A DNA stretch of 64,000 bases. It comes from Vicinamibacterales bacterium. Its GTDB lineage: Bacteria > Acidobacteriota > Vicinamibacteria > Vicinamibacterales > UBA8438. Below, piece by piece: positions 2 through 60,700 of this stretch. Where the stretch lies: positions 12,512 to 76,511 of the forward strand of contig CBDCCN010000004.1 in NCBI GenBank assembly GCA_965214865.1. The letters are read 5' to 3'. The notes under the pieces are model-generated. The model saw only the letters and a program-made list of their open reading frames with translations. It was not told the origin of the DNA and searched no databases. The position numbers were made by a program, and so were the translations under genes. Numbering within the stretch: position 1 is the first letter of the stretch; each line of letters opens with the position of its first letter.

Positions 2-922
2 GTCGTCCGTATCCACCGGCCGGCAAGCTCTCGGCGCTCCCCCCCCGCCCCGCGTTCGTCAGCGGAGCCGCTGTCTCCCGAGGCGGAGATCTACCGCGCG
101 CTCACCCTGGGAACGGCCGACTACATCCGGAAGAACGGCTTCCCGGGAGCCGTGCTCGGGCTTTCCGGCGGCATCGATTCCGCCCTGGCCCTCACCGTCG
201 CGGCGGACGCCATCGGCCCCGACGCGGTGACCGCCGTCTCCATGCCGTCGCGCTACACCGCCGGGATGAACCGGGACGATGCGGCGGTCCTGGCCCGCCG
301 GCTCGGCGTCCGGTTCCTGGAGCTGCCGATCGAGACCCTGGCCGGCGCCTATGGCGCGGCGCTGGCCGGACCTTTCGCCGGCACGGAGCCGAACGTCGCC
401 GAAGAGAACCTGCAGGCGCGCATCCGGGGCAACCTGCTGATGGCGCTCTCGAACAAGTTCGGCTGGCTCGTGCTGACCACCGGCAACAAGAGCGAGATGA
501 GCGTCGGCTACGCCACCCTCTACGGCGACATGGCCGGCGGCTTCGCGATCCTGAAGGACGTGCTGAAGACCTGGGTGTACCGTCTGGCCGTCTGGCGCAA
601 CCGCGACGGCGAGGTGATCCCGCAGCGGATCATCGACAAGCCGCCGACCGCGGAGCTGCGCGACAACCAGCGCGACTCCGACAGCCTGCCGCCCTACGAC
701 GTGCTCGACGGGATCCTGGAAGTGTACGTCGAGCGGGATGGAAGCCCGGCCGAGATCGAAGCCCTCGGCTTCGCCCGGGACACGGTGGAGCGCGTCGTGC
801 AACTCGTCGACCGCACCGAGTACAAGCGCCGGCAGGCCCCGCCCGGCGTCCGCATCTCGACCCGCGCGTTCGGCAAGGACCGGCGGCTGCCCATCACCAA
901 CCGCTACACGCCGACACGCTGA
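2..922 (+). CDS. nadE: NAD+ synthetase (NadE), synthetase domain; 5' end lies outside the window
   Basis: The frame is open from nt 2. The translation has the ATP-PPase SGGIDS motif (GLSGGIDSALA) and a NadE-type C-terminus (TEYKRRQAPPGVRIS). Stop TGA at 920-922. Confidence 0.9.
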   Translation, partial: VVRIHRPASSRRSPPAPRSSAEPLSPEAEIYRALTLGTADYIRKNGFPGAVLGLSGGIDSALALTVAADAIGPDAVTAVSMPSRYTAGMNRDDAAVLARRLGVRFLELPIETLAGAYGAALAGPFAGTEPNVAEENLQARIRGNLLMALSNKFGWLVLTTGNKSEMSVGYATLYGDMAGGFAILKDVLKTWVYRLAVWRNRDGEVIPQRIIDKPPTAELRDNQRDSDSLPPYDVLDGILEVYVERDGSPAEIEALGFARDTVERVVQLVDRTEYKRRQAPPGVRISTRAFGKDRRLPITNRYTPTR

Positions 923-47218: not shown

Positions 47219-49189
47219 CTACTCGGACGCCGGCAACCGGAACGCGATCAGCTCGCCCGGGAACCCGCCGCCGCCGATCGCCGTGACGATGTACTGCCGC
47301 CCCTCGTGCAGGTACGTCATCGGCGATCCGGTCACCCCGGCCGGCATGTGGACGGCGCCCAGCTCCTCGCCCGACATCTTGTCGTAGGCGCGCAGCATCG
47401 CGCCCACCGCGCCGGACGGCGTGGTGAAGGTGCCCGCCTCGCCGGCGATCACCAGCGTCGGGGTGTTCAGCGTCCCCACCCGTCCGATGCGTCCGGTCCG
47501 CGGGATGTCGACGCCCTCCAGCAGCCGGTGGTTGCGGATGTTGTCCGGCGTCTCCCCGTGCGGCACCTGCCAGAGGATCTCCCCTGCCTTGAGGTCGATG
47601 GCGGTGATGCGCCCCCAGGGCGGCTTGATGATCGGGATCCCCTCGATGGCCAGCGACGCCTCCCGGGCGGAGATGCCCTCGCCGCGCCCGCGGATGAAGC
47701 GCATGTCCGAGAGTTCCGGATCGTTGACCAGACCGAGCGAGACCACCTGCGTGAACGTGTACAGGTAGATGATGCCGGTCTCGGGGTCGAGCGAGCCGCC
47801 CGGCCAGTTCGTCCCGCCCGCCTGCGACGGCAGCATCAGGGTGCCGTAGACCCCGTCCGCCTCCGAAACGGTCGGCGGCGTGAAGATCGGCCCCATCCGG
47901 TGCCGCGACGCGATCTCCTCGGCGCGCCGCCGCAGCTCGGGGGTGAAGTCGATCAGGTCGTCGAGATCGACCCCCTGCCGGTCGTAGGCGGGCGGCTTCG
48001 TCACGTAGGGCTGGGTCGGCGCCAGCAGCTCGCCCGGCACGATCGACGGCGCCACCTCGCGCTCCTCGATCGGCCAGATCGGCTCGCCGGTCACCCGGTC
48101 GAAGACGTACAGCCACGACTGCTTGCTCGGCTGCGCCACGATCCTGCGCAGCTCGCCGTCGATCATCACGTCGGCCAGGATCGGCGCGCACGGCAGGTCC
48201 CAGTCCCACACGTCGTGGTGGATGAACTGGAAGTGCCACAGCCGGTCGCCGGTGTCGATGTCCACCGCCACCAGGCTGTCCGAGTAGAGGTTGTCGCCGT
48301 GCCGGTGGCCGCCGTAGTAGTCGTTGGTCGGCATCTCGGTCGGCAGGTAGACGATGCCCAGCTCCAGGTCGGCGCTGATCTGCCCCCACACCCCGGTGTT
48401 GCCGGTGTAGCGCCAGGAATCGTTCAACCAGGTGTCGTTGCCGAACTCGTCCGCCCCCGGAATCGTGTGGAAGATCCACTTGCGGACGCCGGTGTCGGCG
48501 TCGAAGCCGCGGATGTAGCCCTTCGTGTTGCGCATCGAGCGGGGCCGGCCGCCGGGGACGTGCGCCGCGCCCACGACGATGGTGTCGCCGGCCACCAGCG
48601 GCGTGGCGTGCAGGCCGATCTCGCCGGCCAGCGGATCGATCTCCTGATCCATGTTCCGCATCAGGTCGACGATGCCGTCCTCCCCGAAGTCGGTCAGCCG
48701 CTCGCCGGTCTTCGCGTTCAGGCCGATCAGCCGGTAGCCGGGCGTGACGTAGAAGATCTGCCCGTCGCCCCCGTCGTCGCGGTACGCCAAGCCGCGCCCC
48801 GACCGCCGCCGCGGGGCCGCCTCGGCCCGCTCGCCCTCGTCGAGCCGGTGCATCCAGAGCAGCTCGCCGGTGCCGGCGTCCGCCGCGATCGCCGCGCGGC
48901 GCAGGCCGGCGGTGGAGTAGAGCACGCCGTCCACCATCAACGGCGTCGCCTGGAAGTTGTACTCCGGCTCCGGCCCGAAGTTGGCCGTCTTCAACCGCCA
49001 GGCGACCTCCAGGTCGTTGAAGTTCCCGGCCGTGATCTGGTCGAGCGGCGAGTAGCGCGTGTTCGCGACGTCGCCGCCGTAGCTTCGCCACTCCCCGTTG
49101 TCGGTCTGCCCCGCCGCGGGGGCCGCACCGGCTGCGAGCAGCCCGCCGAGCATGATGATCGACGCGATGTGCATGCGATGTATTGCCAC
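47219..49189 (-). CDS. PQQ-dependent dehydrogenase (soluble, glucose/quinate-type quinoprotein), copy 1
   Basis: Signal peptide, then [21 protein letters not shown]...[15 protein letters not shown]... an eight-bladed quinoprotein pattern. Paralog of 50558-52525. Confidence 0.88.
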
Positions 49190-50557: not shown

Positions 50558-52525
50558 CTACTCCTCGGGCAACCGGTAGGCGATCAACTCCCCCGGGAAC
50601 CCGGCCCCGCCGATGGCGGTCACGATGTACTGCCGTCCCTCGTGCATGTAGGTCATCGGCGACCCGGACACCGACGTCGGCATGTACACCGCGCCGACCT
50701 CCTCGCCCGACGCCTTGTCGTAGGCGCGCAGCATCGCCCCGACGTCGCCCGACGGCGTGGTGAACGTGCCCGGCTCGCCCGCGATCAGCAGCGTCTTCGT
50801 GATCAGCGTGCCGACCCGCCCGATGCGGCCGGTGCGGGGGATGTCCACGCCCTGCAGGGCCGGGTGGTTGCGGACGTTGTCGGGCGTCTCGCCGTGCGGG
50901 ATCTGCCAGAGGAAATCCCCCGTCGAGAGATCGATGGCGGTGATGCGCCCCCACGGCGGCTTGATCAGCGGCAGTCCGCGCACGTTCAGCGCGCGCCGGC
51001 GCGCCGGCACCCCGGGCGGATTCCCGCGGATGAAGTTCATGTCCGACCGTTCGGGATCGTTCACCAGTCCCAGCGACGTGACCTGCGTGAAGGAGTACTG
51101 GTAGAAGATGCCGGTCTCGGGATCGACCGAGCCGCCCGGCCAGTTGGTGCCGCCGCCGGCCGACGGCAGCATCAGCGTGCCGTAGGGACCGTCCGGGTCG
51201 GCCACCACCGGCGGCGTGAAAATCGGTCCGAGGCGGAAGTTCGACACCAGCTCCACCGCCTCGGCCCGCAGCTCCGGCGTGAAGTCGATCAGGTCGTCGA
51301 TGCCGACCCCCTGCCGGTCGTAGGCGGGCGGATGGGTCGGGAACGGCTGCGTCGGCGACAGCAGCTCGCCCGGCACGTCGGACGGCGGCATCTCCCGCTC
51401 CTCGATCGGCCAGATCGGCTCGCCGGTCACCCGGTCGAGGACGTACAACCACGACTGCTTGCTCGGCTGGGCGATGAGCTTGCGCTCGACGCCGTCGATC
51501 TCCACGTCGACGAGCACCGGCGCGCAGGGAAAGTCCCAGTCCCAGACGTCGTGGTGGATCACCTGCAGGTGCCACAGCCGCTCCCCGGTGTCGATGTCCA
51601 CCGCGACGATGCTGTCCGAGTAGAGGTTGTCGCCGTGCCGGTGGCCGCCGTAGTAGTCGTTGGTCGGCATCTCGGTCGGCAGGTAGACGATGCCCAGCTC
51701 CAGGTCGGCGCTGATCTGCCCCCACACCCCGGTGTTGCCCGTATAGCGCCAGGAATCGTTCAGCCACGTGTCGTTGCCGAACTCGTCCGCGCCCGGAATC
51801 GTGTGGAAGATCCACTTGCGCGTGCCGGTGTCGGCGTCGAAGCCGCGGATGTAGCCCTTCGTGTTGCGCATCGAGCGCGGCGCGCTGCCCGGCACGTGCG
51901 CGGCCCCGACGACGATCGTGTCGCCCGCCACCAGCGGCGTGGCGTGCAGGCCGATCTCGCCGGCCAGCGGATCGATCTCCTGATCCATGTTCTGCATCAG
52001 GTCGACGATGCCGCCCTCCCCGAAGTCGGCCAGCCGCTCCCCGGTCTTCGCGTTCAATCCGATCAGCCGGTAGCCCGGCGTGACGTAGAAGATCTGCCCG
52101 TCACCGCCGTCGGCACGATACGCGAGACCGCGGCCGGAGCGGCGCCGCGGCGCCGCCTCGGCCCGCTCGCCCTCGTCCAGGCGGTGCATCCAGAACAGCT
52201 CGCCGGTCGCCGCGTCCGCCGCGATCGCCGCCCGGCGCAGACCGGCCGTCGAGTAGATCACCCCGTCCACCATCAGCGGCGTCGACTGGAAGTTGAACTC
52301 CGGCTCCGGCCCGAAGTTGGCGGTCCTCAGCCGCCAGGCGATCTCCAGGTCGTCGAAGTTCTCCGCGTCGATCTGATCGAGCGGCGAATAGCGCGTGTTC
52401 GCGATGTCGCCGCCGTAGCTCCGCCACTCGCCGTCGTCGGTCTGCGCGGCCACCGGCGAAGCGCCGGCCGCGAGCAGCCCGCCGAGGACGACGACCGCCG
52501 CTATCCTGATTCTGCACGCTGGCAT
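50558..52525 (-). CDS. PQQ-dependent dehydrogenase, copy 2
   Basis: Collinear with copy 1, including a 128-nt identical run (48276-48403 = 51612-51739). Same signal peptide style and the [15 protein letters not shown] motif. Confidence 0.88.
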   Translation of the reverse strand: MPACRIRIAAVVVLGGLLAAGASPVAAQTDDGEWRSYGGDIANTRYSPLDQIDAENFDDLEIAWRLRTANFGPEPEFNFQSTPLMVDGVIYSTAGLRRAAIAADAATGELFWMHRLDEGERAEAAPRRRSGRGLAYRADGGDGQIFYVTPGYRLIGLNAKTGERLADFGEGGIVDLMQNMDQEIDPLAGEIGLHATPLVAGDTIVVGAAHVPGSAPRSMRNTKGYIRGFDADTGTRKWIFHTIPGADEFGNDTWLNDSWRYTGNTGVWGQISADLELGIVYLPTEMPTNDYYGGHRHGDNLYSDSIVAVDIDTGERLWHLQVIHHDVWDWDFPCAPVLVDVEIDGVERKLIAQPSKQSWLYVLDRVTGEPIWPIEEREMPPSDVPGELLSPTQPFPTHPPAYDRQGVGIDDLIDFTPELRAEAVELVSNFRLGPIFTPPVVADPDGPYGTLMLPSAGGGTNWPGGSVDPETGIFYQYSFTQVTSLGLVNDPERSDMNFIRGNPPGVPARRRALNVRGLPLIKPPWGRITAIDLSTGDFLWQIPHGETPDNVRNHPALQGVDIPRTGRIGRVGTLITKTLLIAGEPGTFTTPSGDVGAMLRAYDKASGEEVGAVYMPTSVSGSPMTYMHEGRQYIVTAIGGAGFPGELIAYRLPEE

Positions 52526-55192: not shown

Positions 55193-56599
55193 ATGCGACC
55201 GTCCCCCGGCGCACCCCGCTACCGGTTCTCCGGTCACACCCTGTCCCCCGCCCGCAGGACGCTCGTCCGCGACGGCCGGGAGCTGCCGCTGATCCCGCGC
55301 TGCTTCGACCTGCTCGTCCTGCTCGTCGAACGGCGCAACGAGGCGGTGTCGAGGCGTGACATCCTCGACGCGATCTGGAGCGACGTGGTGGTCACCGACG
55401 GTGCTCTGAGCCAGGCGGTCCGGATCCTCCGGCGCACGCTGGGCGACGATCCGCGCGAGCCGACCTTCATCCGTACGGTGACGCGGCACGGCTACCGCTT
55501 CGTCTGCGGCGACGTCGTCGAGGAGCCGGACGAGGGACCGCCGGAACCCGTGCGGACCGCCCCGGCGGAGCCCGACGCGAACGCCTCCTTCGACCAGGCT
55601 CTCAAAACGTTGCTCGACGACGATGCCGGCGATGCCGGCGATGCCGAAGGCGCGGACGTCCGGCGGCGACAGGCCGCCGAGACCCTGCACCAGTTGGGCA
55701 CGGCGGAAGCGCTCGACCGGCTGAACCGCAGACTCGACCGGCTGAACCGCAACGAGGGGCACGCCGTGGCCCGCGCCTACCTGCGCGAGACCCGCTGGAA
55801 CGTTCCGCGTGCGGGGCCGGTTCCGTTGTTCGGACATCCGGGCTGGTTTGCCGCCGCGCGAATTCTGTTCCTGCTTCGCATCCGACGCGCGGCCCGGCTG
55901 GCCGGGCGCCGGTGGACGGCCGCGGCCGCCGGTGGGGCCGCCGCCGGGGCGCTCGCGGGTTTCCTCGGCGGCCTCGTCCTGCGCTTCGGACCGGGGTCGA
56001 CGGCAGGCGACGGCGTGCCGGCGCTGCTGCCGCTTCTGGGAGCGGCGGTCGGCGGCGTCGCGGCCGCGGGGGTCGGAGCCGGTCTGGCCGCCGCGGAAGC
56101 CGCCTTCCGCGCATGGCGGCGGCTGGCCCTCGCCGCGGCCGGGGCGGCGAGCGGTCTGGTTGTCGGCGCGACCGCCCACCTCCTGGGACGCCTCGTGCTC
56201 GAGGGTCTGTTCGGTCGCGATCTCTCGCCGCTGACCGGCGCCGTGGAAGGCCTGGTCCTCGGCGGAGCGGTCGGGCTGGGCTACGGGGTGGCCACGCCGA
56301 CCGCGGAGGGCGGCATGGCCACCCCGCAGGGGCTCGCCCGCGTCCGCGTCGCTCTCCTGACGGGACTCGCCTGCGCGCTGGCGGCCGGGATGCTCGGTTG
56401 GAGCGGCCGCTTCCTGGGGGCGATGAGCCTCGATTTCATGGCGCAGAGCTTTCCCGGCTCGCAGGTCGGCCTCGCGCCCCTGGCCCGCCTGCTCGGCGAG
56501 CAGGAGCCGGGGGGCGTGACCCGGGTCGCGATCAGCGTCTTCGAGGGCCTGATGTTCGGCTCGGGCCTGGCCGCCGGGCTGACCAGACGGGCCCGCTGA
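55193..56599 (+). CDS. Membrane-bound OmpR/PhoB-type winged-helix regulator (CadC/ToxR-like)
   Basis: YRFSGHTLSPARRTLVRDGRELPLIPRCFDLLVLLVERRNEAVSRRDILDAIW...IRTVTRHGYRF is a trans_reg_C domain. It is followed by a Gly/Ala-rich polytopic hydrophobic C-terminal half. Confidence 0.8.
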   Translation: MRPSPGAPRYRFSGHTLSPARRTLVRDGRELPLIPRCFDLLVLLVERRNEAVSRRDILDAIWSDVVVTDGALSQAVRILRRTLGDDPREPTFIRTVTRHGYRFVCGDVVEEPDEGPPEPVRTAPAEPDANASFDQALKTLLDDDAGDAGDAEGADVRRRQAAETLHQLGTAEALDRLNRRLDRLNRNEGHAVARAYLRETRWNVPRAGPVPLFGHPGWFAAARILFLLRIRRAARLAGRRWTAAAAGGAAAGALAGFLGGLVLRFGPGSTAGDGVPALLPLLGAAVGGVAAAGVGAGLAAAEAAFRAWRRLALAAAGAASGLVVGATAHLLGRLVLEGLFGRDLSPLTGAVEGLVLGGAVGLGYGVATPTAEGGMATPQGLARVRVALLTGLACALAAGMLGWSGRFLGAMSLDFMAQSFPGSQVGLAPLARLLGEQEPGGVTRVAISVFEGLMFGSGLAAGLTRRAR

Positions 56600-57053: not shown

Positions 57054-57809
57054 ATGGAGCGACCAGCGAACGGCGGCCTGCACGTGGGCCTGATCATGGA
57101 CGGCAACGGCCGCTGGGCCCGCGCGCGCGGGATCCCGCGCACGGAGGGACACCGCCGCGGGGCCGACGCCGTGCGGCGCGCGGTGGAGGCGGCGCCCGGG
57201 CTCGGCATCACGACGCTGACGCTCTACGCCTTCTCCGCCGACAACTGGCGCCGGCCGGCCGCCGAGGTCGCGACGCTGATGCGGTTGCTGGAGTCCTTTC
57301 TCGTCCGCGCGCGCCCGGACTGTCGCCGGCACGGCGTGCGGCTCGCCCTGATCGGCCGGCGAGACCGCCTGTCGCCCGCGCTGATTCGCGCGATCGAGGA
57401 GACGGAGCGCGCGACACGCGACGGCGCCAGGCTCCATCTGCGGTTGGCCGTGGACTACTCGGCCCGCTCGGCGATCCTCGCCGCGGCCGGCACGCTGCGG
57501 TCGGACGAACGCTGCGACGAGAACGGCTTCCTGCGGCGGGTCAACCGCGCGTGCCACTCCGATCCGGAAACACCGTCGGTCGACCTGGTGATCCGCACCA
57601 GCGGCGAGCAGCGCCTGAGCGACTTCCTGCTCTTCGAGTCGGCCTACGCGGAGCTCCTGTTCGTCGAGACGTTGTGGCCGGACTTCGACGGCGAGGATCT
57701 GAGCCGGGCGGTCGAGGCGTTCCGTCGCCGCGAGCGCCGCTACGGGGGCCTGACCCCGGACAAGGCGATCCGAGCGGGTCAGTGCACTGCCGTCCCGTCG
57801 AGCGCGTGA
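57054..57809 (+). CDS. uppS: Isoprenyl transferase (undecaprenyl-diphosphate synthase family)
   Basis: [17 protein letters not shown]...[14 protein letters not shown]...[25 protein letters not shown] are canonical cis-prenyltransferase motifs. Confidence 0.92.
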
Positions 57810-58009
57810 ACCCCGGAGCGCGGGTCTGCTACCGCCCGGCCGGGCCAAGGCGAAGCCGGACGCGGCGACCCCCCGTCGGGCCCGCGAAACCGGAGTTTCG
57901 GCGCTACTTGTTCGGCCGCAGCTCATCCCCGTTGCGGTTTCCCGGACGGATTCCTAGAATGGAAGCCTCGATCCGGCCGGAAACCGCGTGCGCACCGAGG
58001 AGGCCGCAG

Positions 58010-59452
58010 ATGTCGACGACGCGAAACCGGCGGCGGACGTTCACTTGGCGGGTGTTGCTCGGCACGACGGTCGCGGCGCTCGTCGCGCTGCCGTCTCCGG
58101 CGGCCGCACAGGCGGCGACGGACGAGGTCACGTTCACCCGCGACATCGCTCCCATCCTGCAGCGGAGCTGCCAGAAGTGCCATCGGCCCGACTCGCTGGC
58201 CCCGATGTCGCTGATCGACTACGAGGAGGTGCGCCCCTGGGCGCGGGCCATCAAGTACCGCACCGGGCTGCGCGACCAGCCGGGCGTGATGCCCCCGTGG
58301 TACATCGAGAAGGACATCGGCATCCAGCGGTTCAAGGACGATCCGTCGCTGAGCGACGCGGAGATCGCCCTGATCGCGAAGTGGGCGGACAACGGCGCGC
58401 CCCGGGGCAACCCCGCCGATCTGCCGCCGCCGGTGCCGTTCATCGACGTCGACGAATGGGAGATCGGTCAGCCCGACCTGATCGTGTCGTCGCCGAGCTT
58501 CGAGATCGCGGCCGACGCGCCGGACTGGTGGGGCTCCATCGGCGAGGTGCCGACCGGACTGACCGAGGACCGCTACGTCGCGGCGATGGAATACAAGGAG
58601 ATCACCGAGTCCAGCGTGGGCGAGATCCGCGACACCGTCGGCGGGCTATTCGTGGTGCACCACGCCACCCTCGGCGTGACCGATCCGGATCCCGATCCGA
58701 ACGAGAACGACCCGCTGGCCGCGCAGCGGCGCTGGCCGACCCACGAGGTCGGGCGCAACGCCGACGCCTTCGACCCGGAGGCGGGCAAGATCATGAAGGC
58801 CGGGTCCAAGCTCCAGTTCAACTCGATGCACCTGCACGCGAACGGGGCGGACACGCGGGCGCACCTGAACGTCGGCTTCAAGTTCCATCCCCGCGGCTAT
58901 CAACCGACCCGCAAGTGGGTGCGCATGTCCTTCGGCAACGGCGTCGACCTCGACATCGAGGCGATGGATCCCGACCAGCGGATGGAGGCCTGGTTCACCC
59001 TGCCGGAGAACACGCTGATCACGATCTTCGAGCCCCACATGCACGCGCCCGGCGTGCGGATGTGCTTCGACGCCATCTGGGGGCACAACGTCCAGACACT
59101 GAACTGCGCCGGCTACGACCATAGCTGGGTGCGGGTCTACAACTACGAGGACGACGCGGCGCCGCTGCTGCCCAGGGGCACCATCCTGCGGATCACCGGC
59201 TACTTCAACAACTCGCCGTCGAACCCCAACGTGCCCGATCCGCGCAACTGGTCCGGAGGCGGCCACCGCTCGGTCGACCAGATGTTCATCAACCTGATGC
59301 GCGGGGTCTACCTGACCGACGAGGAGTTCGCGGCGGAGATGGTCAAGCGGCGCGGGAACCTCGGCCTCGCCGACGGCGAAATGGTCCTCGGCTGCCCGCT
59401 GTGCGGAACCGTGCAGGTGGAGCCGGCCGACAACGCCGGGGGAAACCAGTGA
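58010..59452 (+). CDS. Secreted protein with an N-terminal c-type heme motif and a copper type II monooxygenase-like His pattern
   Basis: GAGGAGG Shine-Dalgarno sequence before ATG 58010. Signal peptide. DIAPILQRSCQKCHRPDS (CxxCH). His clusters are VVHHATL, SMHLHANG and EPHMHAPG. Confidence 0.75.
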   Translation: MSTTRNRRRTFTWRVLLGTTVAALVALPSPAAAQAATDEVTFTRDIAPILQRSCQKCHRPDSLAPMSLIDYEEVRPWARAIKYRTGLRDQPGVMPPWYIEKDIGIQRFKDDPSLSDAEIALIAKWADNGAPRGNPADLPPPVPFIDVDEWEIGQPDLIVSSPSFEIAADAPDWWGSIGEVPTGLTEDRYVAAMEYKEITESSVGEIRDTVGGLFVVHHATLGVTDPDPDPNENDPLAAQRRWPTHEVGRNADAFDPEAGKIMKAGSKLQFNSMHLHANGADTRAHLNVGFKFHPRGYQPTRKWVRMSFGNGVDLDIEAMDPDQRMEAWFTLPENTLITIFEPHMHAPGVRMCFDAIWGHNVQTLNCAGYDHSWVRVYNYEDDAAPLLPRGTILRITGYFNNSPSNPNVPDPRNWSGGGHRSVDQMFINLMRGVYLTDEEFAAEMVKRRGNLGLADGEMVLGCPLCGTVQVEPADNAGGNQ

Positions 59453-60336
59453 GAGCCCTCGCGGTCGTCCTCCTGGCCGGGTTTCTGTTCGGCCCGGCGG
59501 CGGACGACGCCACCGCACAGTTCCGGCGCGCCTACGACCACGGGCAGGAGGTGGTGCCCGCTTACGAGGGATGGGAGCAGAACCCGGACGGCTCGTTCAA
59601 CCTGGTGTTCGGGACGATGAACCGGAACTGGGCGGAGGAGCTGCACATCCCGATCGGCCCCGACAACCACATCGAGCCGGGCGGGCCCGACCAGGGGCAG
59701 CCGACCTGGTTCCTGCCGCGGCGGAACCGTTTCCTGTTCCGCGTCCGGGTCCCGGCGGACTTCGGCGACAGGGAACTGGTCTGGACGCTGAGCAGCCACG
59801 GGGAAACGAAGCGCGCCTACGGGACGCTGAAACCCGACTACTACATGGACGACAACGTCCGGATGGCGAACAACGGGGCCGGCGTCTCCGGAACGATCTT
59901 CGAGAACGTGGCTCCCGTGCTCACGGTGCACGGCGAGTCGACGAGGACGGTCGAGGCGAACGAGCCGATCACCCTGACCGCGGTCGCGCACGACGAGGAC
60001 GGACTGCCCAGACGGCGGGCGATGCGCCCCGTGGATCCGGGCCGCCCCACGAGCCTGACCCCGATCGCCGCCACCGGCCTCCGGCTCTCGTGGTTCCTCT
60101 ACCGGGGGGCTGCGCCGGTGACCTTCGATCCGGTGCAGACCAAGGTCTGGGAGGACACGCGGGCCAACTCGAACTCGCCGTGGGGCGCCGGCTGGGAGAC
60201 TCCCGACCCGCCCCCCGCCAACAAGTGGGTGGTGCAGGCCACCTTCAGCGAGCCCGGCACCTACGTGCTGCGGTGCATCGCGCACGACGGCGGCTTGGCG
60301 ACCTACGAGGACGTCACGTTCGTGGTGGCGGAGTGA
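59449..60336 (+). CDS. Hypothetical secreted protein, translationally coupled to the upstream gene
   Basis: The GTG start overlaps the upstream stop (GTGA). Signal-like RALAVVLLAGFLFGPAADDATAQ. A C-terminal Ig-like segment ends in TYVLRCIAHDGGLATYEDVTFVV. Confidence 0.7.
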   Translation: MRALAVVLLAGFLFGPAADDATAQFRRAYDHGQEVVPAYEGWEQNPDGSFNLVFGTMNRNWAEELHIPIGPDNHIEPGGPDQGQPTWFLPRRNRFLFRVRVPADFGDRELVWTLSSHGETKRAYGTLKPDYYMDDNVRMANNGAGVSGTIFENVAPVLTVHGESTRTVEANEPITLTAVAHDEDGLPRRRAMRPVDPGRPTSLTPIAATGLRLSWFLYRGAAPVTFDPVQTKVWEDTRANSNSPWGAGWETPDPPPANKWVVQATFSEPGTYVLRCIAHDGGLATYEDVTFVVAE

Positions 60337-60358: not shown

Positions 60359-60433
60359 GAGAAAACACCGAAGCGGCCGGCGGACTTCGTTGCCGGCGTC
60401 CGGAGCGCCGGAAGCCGTGCCGGCCGTTTTCTC
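60359..60433 (+). terminator. Nested stem-loop followed by TTTTCTCC (candidate terminator of the 58010-60336 operon)
   Basis: The outer arms GAGAAAAC..GGCCGGC (60359-60381) pair with GCCGGCCGTTTTCTC (60419-60433). An inner hairpin is CCGGCG-TCCGGAG-CGCCGG. Confidence 0.4.
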
Positions 60434-60700
60434 CAGGAGTGCGGCCACGAAGCACCGCCGGACGCCGCCCGACTTCGGGCCTGCAGGTCGATGACGCGGG
60501 CGCGCGAGCAGGTACTCCACCGGGAACGAGTCGACGGCCGGCGAGGACCCGACCACCGCCGCCACGCGGCTCGTGACGACAGGACCGCCGGACGCGCCGG
60601 ACGCACTACCGAATCGGAAAGTCCGATGCGAACGAAGCGACAGTCGAGTCTCCCACGGTACCGGAGGACCAGGATCCCGCTACGAATCGGAGAGCCCGAG

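Follow-up and report, generated by a model that had tools for sequence, protein, structure and literature searches.

A predicted haem c-linked relative of the PHM/DBH copper monooxygenases and its partner subunit in Acidobacteriota

We analysed a two-gene module lying in a 64,000-nucleotide (nt) stretch of DNA, hereafter the window, from an uncultured Vicinamibacterales bacterium of soil (UBA8438; assembly GCA_965214865.1, contig CBDCCN010000004.1, positions 12,512-76,511, forward strand). The G+C content of the window is ~70%, and its nearest relatives are Vicinamibacterales metagenome-assembled genomes of the phylum Acidobacteriota. As judged from its predicted structure, gene 1 of the module encodes a secreted protein in which a mono-haem cytochrome c is joined to a divergent two-copper core of the PHM/DBH type, named after peptidylglycine alpha-hydroxylating monooxygenase and dopamine beta-hydroxylase, which make hormones in animals. 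We consider it rather probable that the products of genes 1 and 2 are the subunits of a two-part periplasmic copper monooxygenase from the PHM/DBH superfamily, whose reductant would be the fused c-type haem and not ascorbate. The directly supported part of this proposal comprises the fold, the ligands and how well they are conserved, the haem motif, and the finding that the two genes are obligately paired or fused. The coordinates of the features are collected in Table 1.

An AlphaFold2 model of gene 1 was built on a 20-sequence alignment and searched against the PDB with Foldseek. The model (mean pLDDT 76, most core strands 83-95) starts with a helical domain, after which come two beta-sandwich domains. 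Ranks 1-31 of the search were held by human DBH (4zel, E = 5.6e-9) and 29 rat PHM entries, all with a probability of 1.00 and with 306-341 aligned columns; since more than 300 columns were aligned with DBH and PHM, both core domains are matched. From rank 32 onward the matches were unrelated jelly rolls with E values of 1e-4 or worse. An earlier reading of this DNA from its letters alone (the sequence-only reading) had likened the histidine pattern of gene 1 to that of the copper monooxygenases, and had staked this proposal beforehand on two points. The predicted structure does have the copper-monooxygenase fold, and the His clusters are conserved among homologues, as described below.

The putative copper ligands are distributed over the two beta-sandwich domains. 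The CuH-like site comprises His217/His218 (nt 58658-58663) and His274 (nt 58829-58831), with His276 beside it, and the CuM-like site comprises His343/His345 (nt 59036-59044) and Met425 (nt 59282-59284). The three His clusters noticed earlier are thus located at residues 217-218 (HH), 274-276 (HLH, nt 58829-58837) and 343-345 (HMH). In the 20-sequence alignment, which spans 34-90% identity, His217, His218, His274 and His343 were invariant, and His276, His345 and Met425 were at least 90% conserved. We also used a larger set of 151 full-length gene 1 homologues, reaching down to 31% identity, in which the haem Cys/Cys/His, Met94, five His and Met425 were each kept in 141-149 sequences (147-149 for His217, His218 and His274; 141-146 for His343, His345 and Met425). 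A probable disulfide, Cys352-Cys366, is present in the second beta-sandwich domain.

The sequence-only reading had also proposed searches with the Pfam models Cu2_monooxygen and Cu2_monoox_C. Gene 1 itself gave no match, and here the proposal stood for distant relatives only: P0282, which is 37% identical to gene 1, reached the Cu2_monoox_C cut-off (23.6 vs. 23 bits), and P0322 matched Cu2_monooxygen and then Cu2_monoox_C in the right order (20.4 and 17 bits). When projected onto gene 1, the matches of these relatives cover amino acids (aa) 159-277 (Cu2_monooxygen) and 314-441 (Cu2_monoox_C), the segments that hold the two ligand clusters. Gene 1 has the structure and the ligands of a PHM/DBH protein but falls below the Pfam thresholds.

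The haem domain precedes the copper core. The SCQKCH site, read earlier as a haem c site near the N-terminus, provides Cys54/Cys57/His58 (nt 58169-58183), and this CxxCH motif was kept in 146 of the 151 full-length homologues. Met94 (nt 58289-58291), in an MPPW motif, was kept in 149 of them and is the probable axial haem ligand. All four residues were invariant in the 20-sequence alignment. Gene 1 is below the threshold of the Pfam cytochrome c models (Cytochrome_CBB3, 13 vs. 27 bits, E = 0.13), and sub-threshold Cytochrome_CBB3 matches were obtained for 19 of 20 family members (best E = 6.8e-5). The sub-threshold matches of the domain were Cytochrome_CBB3, Haem_bd and PccH, with nothing stronger. 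Local similarity to the C-terminal haem domain of hydrazine synthase alpha and to PDB 4rlr was seen around F-x-x-D-I-x-P-I-L-x-x-x-C-x-x-C-H. PSCyt1, which had been put forward for the same search, was dropped as the identity of the haem domain, with no match at E up to 10 in any of 20 members.

The N-terminus of gene 1, MSTTRNRRRTFTWRVLLGTTVAALVALPSPAAAQA, has the n/h/c organisation of a signal peptide as read from the sequence, in line with the earlier reading, and a hydrophobic N-terminus is common to all homologues in the 20-sequence alignment. Within this peptide, RRRTF (nt 58028-58042) resembles a twin-arginine motif and is not conserved in homologues. Haem attachment in c-type cytochromes needs Sec export, which makes such a motif odd in gene 1. 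Tat export was rejected on both grounds, namely the lack of conservation of RRRTF and its poor fit with c-type haem attachment.

We then consider the relation of gene 1 to gene 2, for which 81 related loci were compared (80 from species-representative genomes and one other). In 73 of the 81 loci the next gene downstream, on the strand of gene 1, is a gene 2 homologue; in four more it is found upstream, and two of the loci without an adjacent gene 2 end right after gene 1. This co-occurrence agrees with the coupled partner that the sequence-only reading had seen in gene 2. The divergence of gene 1 from the window pair is correlated with that of gene 2 (Pearson r = 0.92). Furthermore, natural fusions exist, P0260 (665 aa) among them. 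Fusions in the order gene 1-gene 2 were found in one cluster at 90% identity, whose 19 sequences come from JGI, ENA, Logan and NCBI and often measure 627-691 aa, and in a second cluster of six sequences, together with a single example of a fusion in the order gene 2-gene 1. A permuted fusion, P0256 (697 aa, on a 4.09-Mb contig), has the gene 2 N-terminal domain, gene 1 and the gene 2 C-terminal domain in this order, and the domains of gene 2 may touch gene 1 at its two opposite ends. Because of the directly downstream position in 73 of 81 loci, the co-divergence and the fusions in independent assemblies, genes 1 and 2 almost certainly form one enzyme, with gene 2 as a subunit.

Gene 2 begins with a short signal peptide, VRALAVVLLAGFLFGPAADDATAQ, and its predicted model (pLDDT 68) consists of two beta-sandwich domains. 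It has more than 6,500 homologues and is above the threshold for no Pfam or NCBIfam model; weak PKD matches were obtained for the C-terminal half in 9 of 30 homologues. The signal peptide, the beta-sandwich model and these PKD matches bear out the description of gene 2 as a secreted protein with an Ig-like C-terminus. A DOMON-like identity of the N-terminal domain was rejected, with no DBH or DOMON entry and only generic Ig-like proteins among the Foldseek matches listed. Residues 264-286 of gene 2 (ATFSEPGTYVLRCIAHDGG, nt 60238-60306) resemble the copper loop of plastocyanin (motif E = 0.78). In this loop, Cys276 and His279 were kept in 68-71% of 180 homologues, and occurred together in 3 of 42 genome pairs. 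A type 1 copper (cupredoxin) site in gene 2 was therefore discarded, the Cys and His not being conserved and a conserved upstream His being absent, and for these reasons the loop is probably a relic of the fold and no copper site. A metal site shared by the CPLC tail of gene 1 and Cys276/His279 of gene 2 was likewise rejected, as no covariation was seen.

The two genes form a self-contained unit, as they have their own ribosome-binding sites, a 4-nt overlap, a gap of ~200 nt to the upstream undecaprenyl-diphosphate synthase gene (UppS, 57054-57809) and a terminator-like hairpin after gene 2. The strong Shine-Dalgarno sequence reported earlier for gene 1 is GAGGAGG, and GGGGGA sits 5 nt upstream of the gene 2 start. 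The start of gene 2 on the GTGA shared with the gene 1 stop, also read before, is reproduced on two public contigs with an identical gene 1 protein, where independent gene calls give 480-aa and 295-aa genes overlapping by 4 nt. Between gene 2 and the DUF2272 gene, two terminator-like hairpins lie on opposite strands (60382-60366, minus; 60407-60424, plus).

Table 1. Coordinates of the module, its predicted domains and related features (window positions unless a locus handle is given; aa, amino acids; ORF, open reading frame)
Feature	Position	Strand	Details and basis
468-aa ToxR/CadC-like protein	55193..56599	+	N-terminal winged-helix Trans_reg_C; long C-terminal part, rich in Gly/Ala, that apparently spans the membrane
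Shine-Dalgarno GAGGAGG of gene 1	57997..58003	+	6 nt upstream of ATG; read from sequence
Gene 1	58010..59452	+	480 aa; ATG 58010, TGA 59450-59452; ORF and translation
Gene 1 signal peptide, aa 1 to ~33/35	58010..58114	+	Cleavage sites AAA/Q or AQA/A; read from sequence
Gene 1 mono-haem cytochrome c domain, aa ~40-135	58127..58414	+	CxxCH and probable axial Met94; conservation, sub-threshold Pfam matches
Gene 1 first beta-sandwich domain, aa ~150-298	58457..58903	+	CuH-like site; Foldseek, ligand conservation, hhalign, relatives' Cu2_monooxygen matches
Gene 1 second beta-sandwich domain, aa ~299-452	58904..59365	+	CuM-like site; Foldseek, ligand conservation, hhalign, relatives' Cu2_monoox_C matches
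Gene 1 C-terminal CPLC motif, Cys462/Cys465	59393..59404	+	Kept in 128-130/151 homologues, lost in most distant
Gene 2	59449..60336	+	295 aa; GTG start 59449; ORF and translation
Gene 2 N-terminal beta-sandwich domain	aa ~30-130	+	Highly conserved; model and homologues
Gene 2 C-terminal beta-sandwich domain, Ig/PKD-like	aa ~150-295	+	Model, pLDDT 80-97 in strands
Terminator-like GC hairpin and T-run	60407..60434	+	3' of gene 2; closes the two-gene unit
PAL-like NHL genes	L020:8225-9361; L005:4161-5393; L018:8416-9567; L028:11395-12474; L047:2312-3451		Adjoin family members
Secreted ~330-aa family, examples	L008:8269-9246; L075:8394-9413; L057:7733-8812; L073:8305-9156; L028:10338-11387		

The family to which gene 1 belongs is large. 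Gene 1 matched more than 7,000 clusters at 90% identity among the candidates scored, and an exhaustive search of 50%-identity representatives gave 758 matches with E < 1e-30. In public sources the family goes by no other names than "cytochrome c", "mono/diheme cytochrome c family protein" and "hypothetical protein". Taxonomy and genomic neighbours were counted on the 80 best genome loci, all of them from metagenome-assembled genomes: 63 belong to Acidobacteriota (mostly Vicinamibacterales, with four Bryobacteraceae), 13 to Gemmatimonadota, including Longimicrobiales, three to Proteobacteria and one to Acidimicrobiia. At least two copies of the pair are present in 19 of the 81 loci as tandem arrays (for example L018, L047, L075, L073 and L026), and L018 (1-13419) has four copies of each gene within 13 kb, as is typical of enzyme families that diversify to different substrates. 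AhpC/TSA or thioredoxin-like domains, a core in duplicate, or EF-hands are found in some distant relatives. Specifically, P0305 (1251 aa) consists of AhpC/TSA, cytochrome c and a PHM-like core followed by a thioredoxin-like domain, a haem domain and a second PHM-like core, and P0301 (1064 aa) has two PHM-like cores and EF-hands. These two proteins show that haem-linked PHM-like proteins form a broader and diverse superfamily in bacteria. The extra domains of N-terminally extended fragments (P0333 and others) were uninformative.

Recurrent neighbours were counted within ~6 kb of family members, as raw counts with no genome-wide background. Dehydrogenases dependent on pyrroloquinoline quinone (PQQ) were found in 16 of the 80 loci. 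The window has two such genes (50558-52525 and 47219-49189, both on the minus strand), each of ~655 aa without a fused cytochrome domain and situated 5.5-11 kb upstream of the module; these neighbouring enzymes could be electron donors or could process the product. Genes for secreted NHL beta-propellers were found in 5 of the 80 loci. When compared with rat peptidyl-alpha-hydroxyglycine lyase (PAL), using a sequence confirmed to be identical to 3fvz, the five propellers keep the zinc ligands His585 (4/5), His690 (5/5) and His786 (4/5), as well as Tyr654 (4/5) and Arg706 (5/5). In L020 the PAL-like gene directly follows gene 2. PHM-like and PAL-like genes can thus be seen side by side in bacteria.

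In addition, a secreted family of ~330 aa was found near family members in 18 of the 80 loci, often directly after gene 2. It has no Pfam, NCBIfam or PDB match, and its motifs are G-x-PD-L/I-Q/N-G-I/V-W, ERC, W-x-G-x-S-x-G-x-W-x-G-x-TLVVET and EYACHEGNY; no member of this EYACHEGN family lies within the window. The genes flanking the module in the window encode a ToxR-like regulator, UppS, a DUF2272 protein, a DRL-type oxidoreductase and PhyH. They were set aside as a functional clue, being kept only in near-identical or 90%-identical relatives and not family-wide; the ToxR/CadC-like gene is conserved upstream only on near-identical contigs.

In PHM and DBH, whose two coppers are ~11 Å apart with solvent between them, the His3 site accepts single electrons, and the His2Met site binds O2 and abstracts hydrogen from a substrate held in the cleft. 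By analogy, we infer copper occupancy, electron transfer from the haem to CuH, oxygenase chemistry, a role for gene 2 and a substrate class in the proposed enzyme as follows. Both proteins would be exported, and in the periplasm Cys54/Cys57 would bind the haem covalently, His58 and Met94 being its axial ligands. An outside donor, either the respiratory or periplasmic cytochrome c pool or the nearby PQQ dehydrogenases, would reduce the haem, which would hand single electrons to the CuH-like site (His217, His218, His274). The CuM-like site (His343, His345, Met425) would then bind O2 and hydroxylate a C-H bond in a substrate lodged where the two beta-sandwich domains form a cleft. Gene 2 would be permanently bound to the core, where it would most likely shape or cap the substrate site, or else stabilise the two-domain core. 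Further periplasmic steps would convert the product, an alcohol or a carbinolamine. In some relatives the neighbouring PQQ dehydrogenases or PAL-like lyases could carry out these steps, a role that both kinds of neighbour fit.

Several results weigh against a copper monooxygenase of this kind. The TM-scores of the gene 1 model are modest (0.3-0.56), as is expected because the two domains are hinged. Gene 1 matches no copper model in Pfam or NCBIfam, with none in Pfam even at E up to 10, and neither PHM nor DBH was found when PDB sequences were searched with gene 1 by phmmer or by profile hmmsearch. With a rat PHM sequence confirmed against 1sdw, hhalign of the 20-sequence profile placed His217/His218 on His107/His108, His274 on His172, His343/His345 on His242/His244 and Met425 on Met314, but this six-ligand alignment is marginal (E = 1.3e-3, probability 18%), and a profile of 148 mostly close sequences gave another, non-significant register. 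Homology was therefore rested on the fold and the transitive Pfam matches. The substrate-anchor residues of PHM, Arg240, Asn316 and Tyr318, correspond to Glu341, Ile427 and Leu429 in gene 1, which are conserved within the family; the substrate would therefore not be bound as peptidylglycine is in PHM. As for gene 2, its Foldseek matches are generic Ig-like proteins only, so that its role is a guess. Finally, no PAL-like gene lies within the 64-kb window, and the PQQ and PAL associations, though suggestive, are minority features (16/80 and 5/80, as raw counts without background).

Some of these points also bear on other explanations of the module. If the two-copper core were an oxidase or reductase running on cytochrome c electrons, turning O2 into H2O2 or H2O or acting on a small inorganic compound, no organic hydroxylation would take place. 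A fused haem c is indeed typical of periplasmic respiratory copper enzymes such as cytochrome-fused NirK and NosZ, no substrate-binding residues are recognisable in gene 1, and the neighbourhoods vary. However, the full His3 and His2Met ligand set of the monooxygenases, the Met included, is conserved, the paralogue arrays with a variable partner suggest many organic substrates, and the PQQ-dehydrogenase and PAL-like neighbours fit the processing of a hydroxylated product, and we regard an oxidase or reductase as unlikely. The fold and copper ligands of gene 1 are those of PHM, and the PAL-like propellers of 5 of 80 loci, which have the zinc His triad along with Tyr654 and Arg706 and of which one comes directly after gene 2, are what would be expected if the module were the true bacterial counterpart of PHM, hydroxylating glycine-extended peptides or N-acylglycines from which a separate PAL-like lyase would release the amide. 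Against this stand the lack of conservation of the Arg240 carboxylate anchor and of Asn316/Tyr318, the association with PAL-like genes in ~6% of loci only, and the tandem paralogue arrays, which suggest many different substrates. A peptide-amidating role is quite unlikely in our view and, with the anchor residues not kept and no partner PAL lyase in the window, gene 1 is on sequence grounds no orthologue of PHM.

A protein without catalysis was also considered, that is, a copper-binding, copper-homeostasis or electron-transfer protein on a PHM-like scaffold, for which gene 2 would be a structural or cell-surface Ig-like component. The CPLC tail resembles the CxxC motifs of metal-handling proteins, and the generic Ig-like matches of gene 2 would suit such a component, but CPLC is lost in distant members in which the copper sites persist. 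Two complete and distinct copper sites are strictly conserved over 31-90% identity, and the family is large, with a paralogue expansion like that of catabolic enzymes, so this explanation seems very improbable to us. The remaining case is that of a copper-free double jelly roll, PNGase F-like or carbohydrate-binding, in which the His pattern would be coincidental. PHM and PNGase F share a Pfam clan and the double jelly-roll fold (PMC8812541). No PNGase F was, however, among the 50 Foldseek matches listed, in which DBH and PHM hold ranks 1-31, the His and Met positions are near-invariant, and relatives match the Cu2 Pfam models, making a copper-free protein scarcely credible.

The two-subunit, haem-fed copper monooxygenase remains the reading that we prefer, and a broader one is offered tentatively, as possible rather than probable. 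The pair may represent a large, undescribed bacterial branch of the PHM/DBH monooxygenases that is two-subunit, periplasmic and powered by respiratory-chain electrons through a built-in haem c, and that has diversified through tandem duplications in the abundant Acidobacteriota and Gemmatimonadota of soils and the sea. Together with PQQ dehydrogenases and PAL-like lyases, it may form an extracytoplasmic pathway, independent of ascorbate and NAD(P)H, that hydroxylates and then cleaves or oxidises recalcitrant organics. The two-copper fold, so far centred on eukaryotes, is present in thousands of bacterial sequences. Uncultured Vicinamibacterales and Gemmatimonadota, both of them major groups of soils and the sea, have expanded sets of the family, which may mark a so far overlooked periplasmic route for the oxidative turnover of carbon or nitrogen. 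A better annotation could be given to sequences that are currently named "cytochrome c" or "hypothetical protein". The passage of electrons from CuH to CuM remains a matter of debate for such enzymes, and with a haem c donor that is built in and can be followed by spectroscopy, electrons could be supplied singly and under control to address it.

The enzymes related to PHM and DBH, like these two themselves, are regarded as eukaryotic and dependent on ascorbate. Like PHM, the catalytic core of PAM (1phm, 1sdw), gene 1 has two tandem beta-sandwich domains with His-His...His followed by His-x-His...Met, matched by Foldseek at probability 1.00, and the spacing of the ligands is comparable (218 to 274 to 343, and 345 to 425, in gene 1 vs. 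108 to 172 to 242, and 244 to 314, in PHM). Unlike PHM, it has only ~10% sequence identity to that enzyme, has no Pfam match and lacks Arg240, Asn316 and Tyr318; it carries an N-terminal haem c where PHM uses free ascorbate, needs a second subunit, and is bacterial and periplasmic. DBH (4zel), whose relatives include tyramine beta-monooxygenase and MOXD1, is the best structural match to gene 1 (E = 5.6e-9, 341 aligned columns). In both, the copper core is surrounded by extra domains, which in DBH are beta-sandwich and oligomerisation domains. DBH, however, has its DOMON and C-terminal dimerisation domains in the same chain, whereas the extra beta-sandwiches here are on a separate subunit and are fused only in some relatives, and the electron donor proposed for gene 1 would also be different. 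In a 2022 survey of double jelly-roll proteins, PHM was taken as the eukaryotic branch of the clan and set against PNGase F in bacteria (PMC8812541).

Full-text searches of the literature gave no description of a bacterial cytochrome c-fused PHM/DBH enzyme. The bacterial AhpC/TSA (redoxin)-cytochrome c-Cu2_monoox_C proteins such as P0305, which are distant homologues at 28-29% identity, resemble gene 1 in combining cytochrome c with a PHM-like core, for which the Pfam Cu2_monoox_C match is weak there, and differ from it in carrying thioredoxin-like domains and a duplicated core in one chain. To our knowledge no member of this group has been characterised, and literature searches found none. 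The cytochrome domain of cellobiose dehydrogenase and CYBDOM proteins feed LPMOs, and cytochrome c-fused NirK also exists. These systems share with the proposed enzyme a dedicated haem domain giving single electrons to an extracytoplasmic copper site, but their copper folds are unrelated, and the haem of the LPMO systems is of type b on a separate protein. For the PHM/DBH fold, the papers searched describe no comparable arrangement. Compared with these known systems, the catalytic fold of the module is known, and the proposed built-in electron donor, the obligate subunit and the very large bacterial distribution are new.

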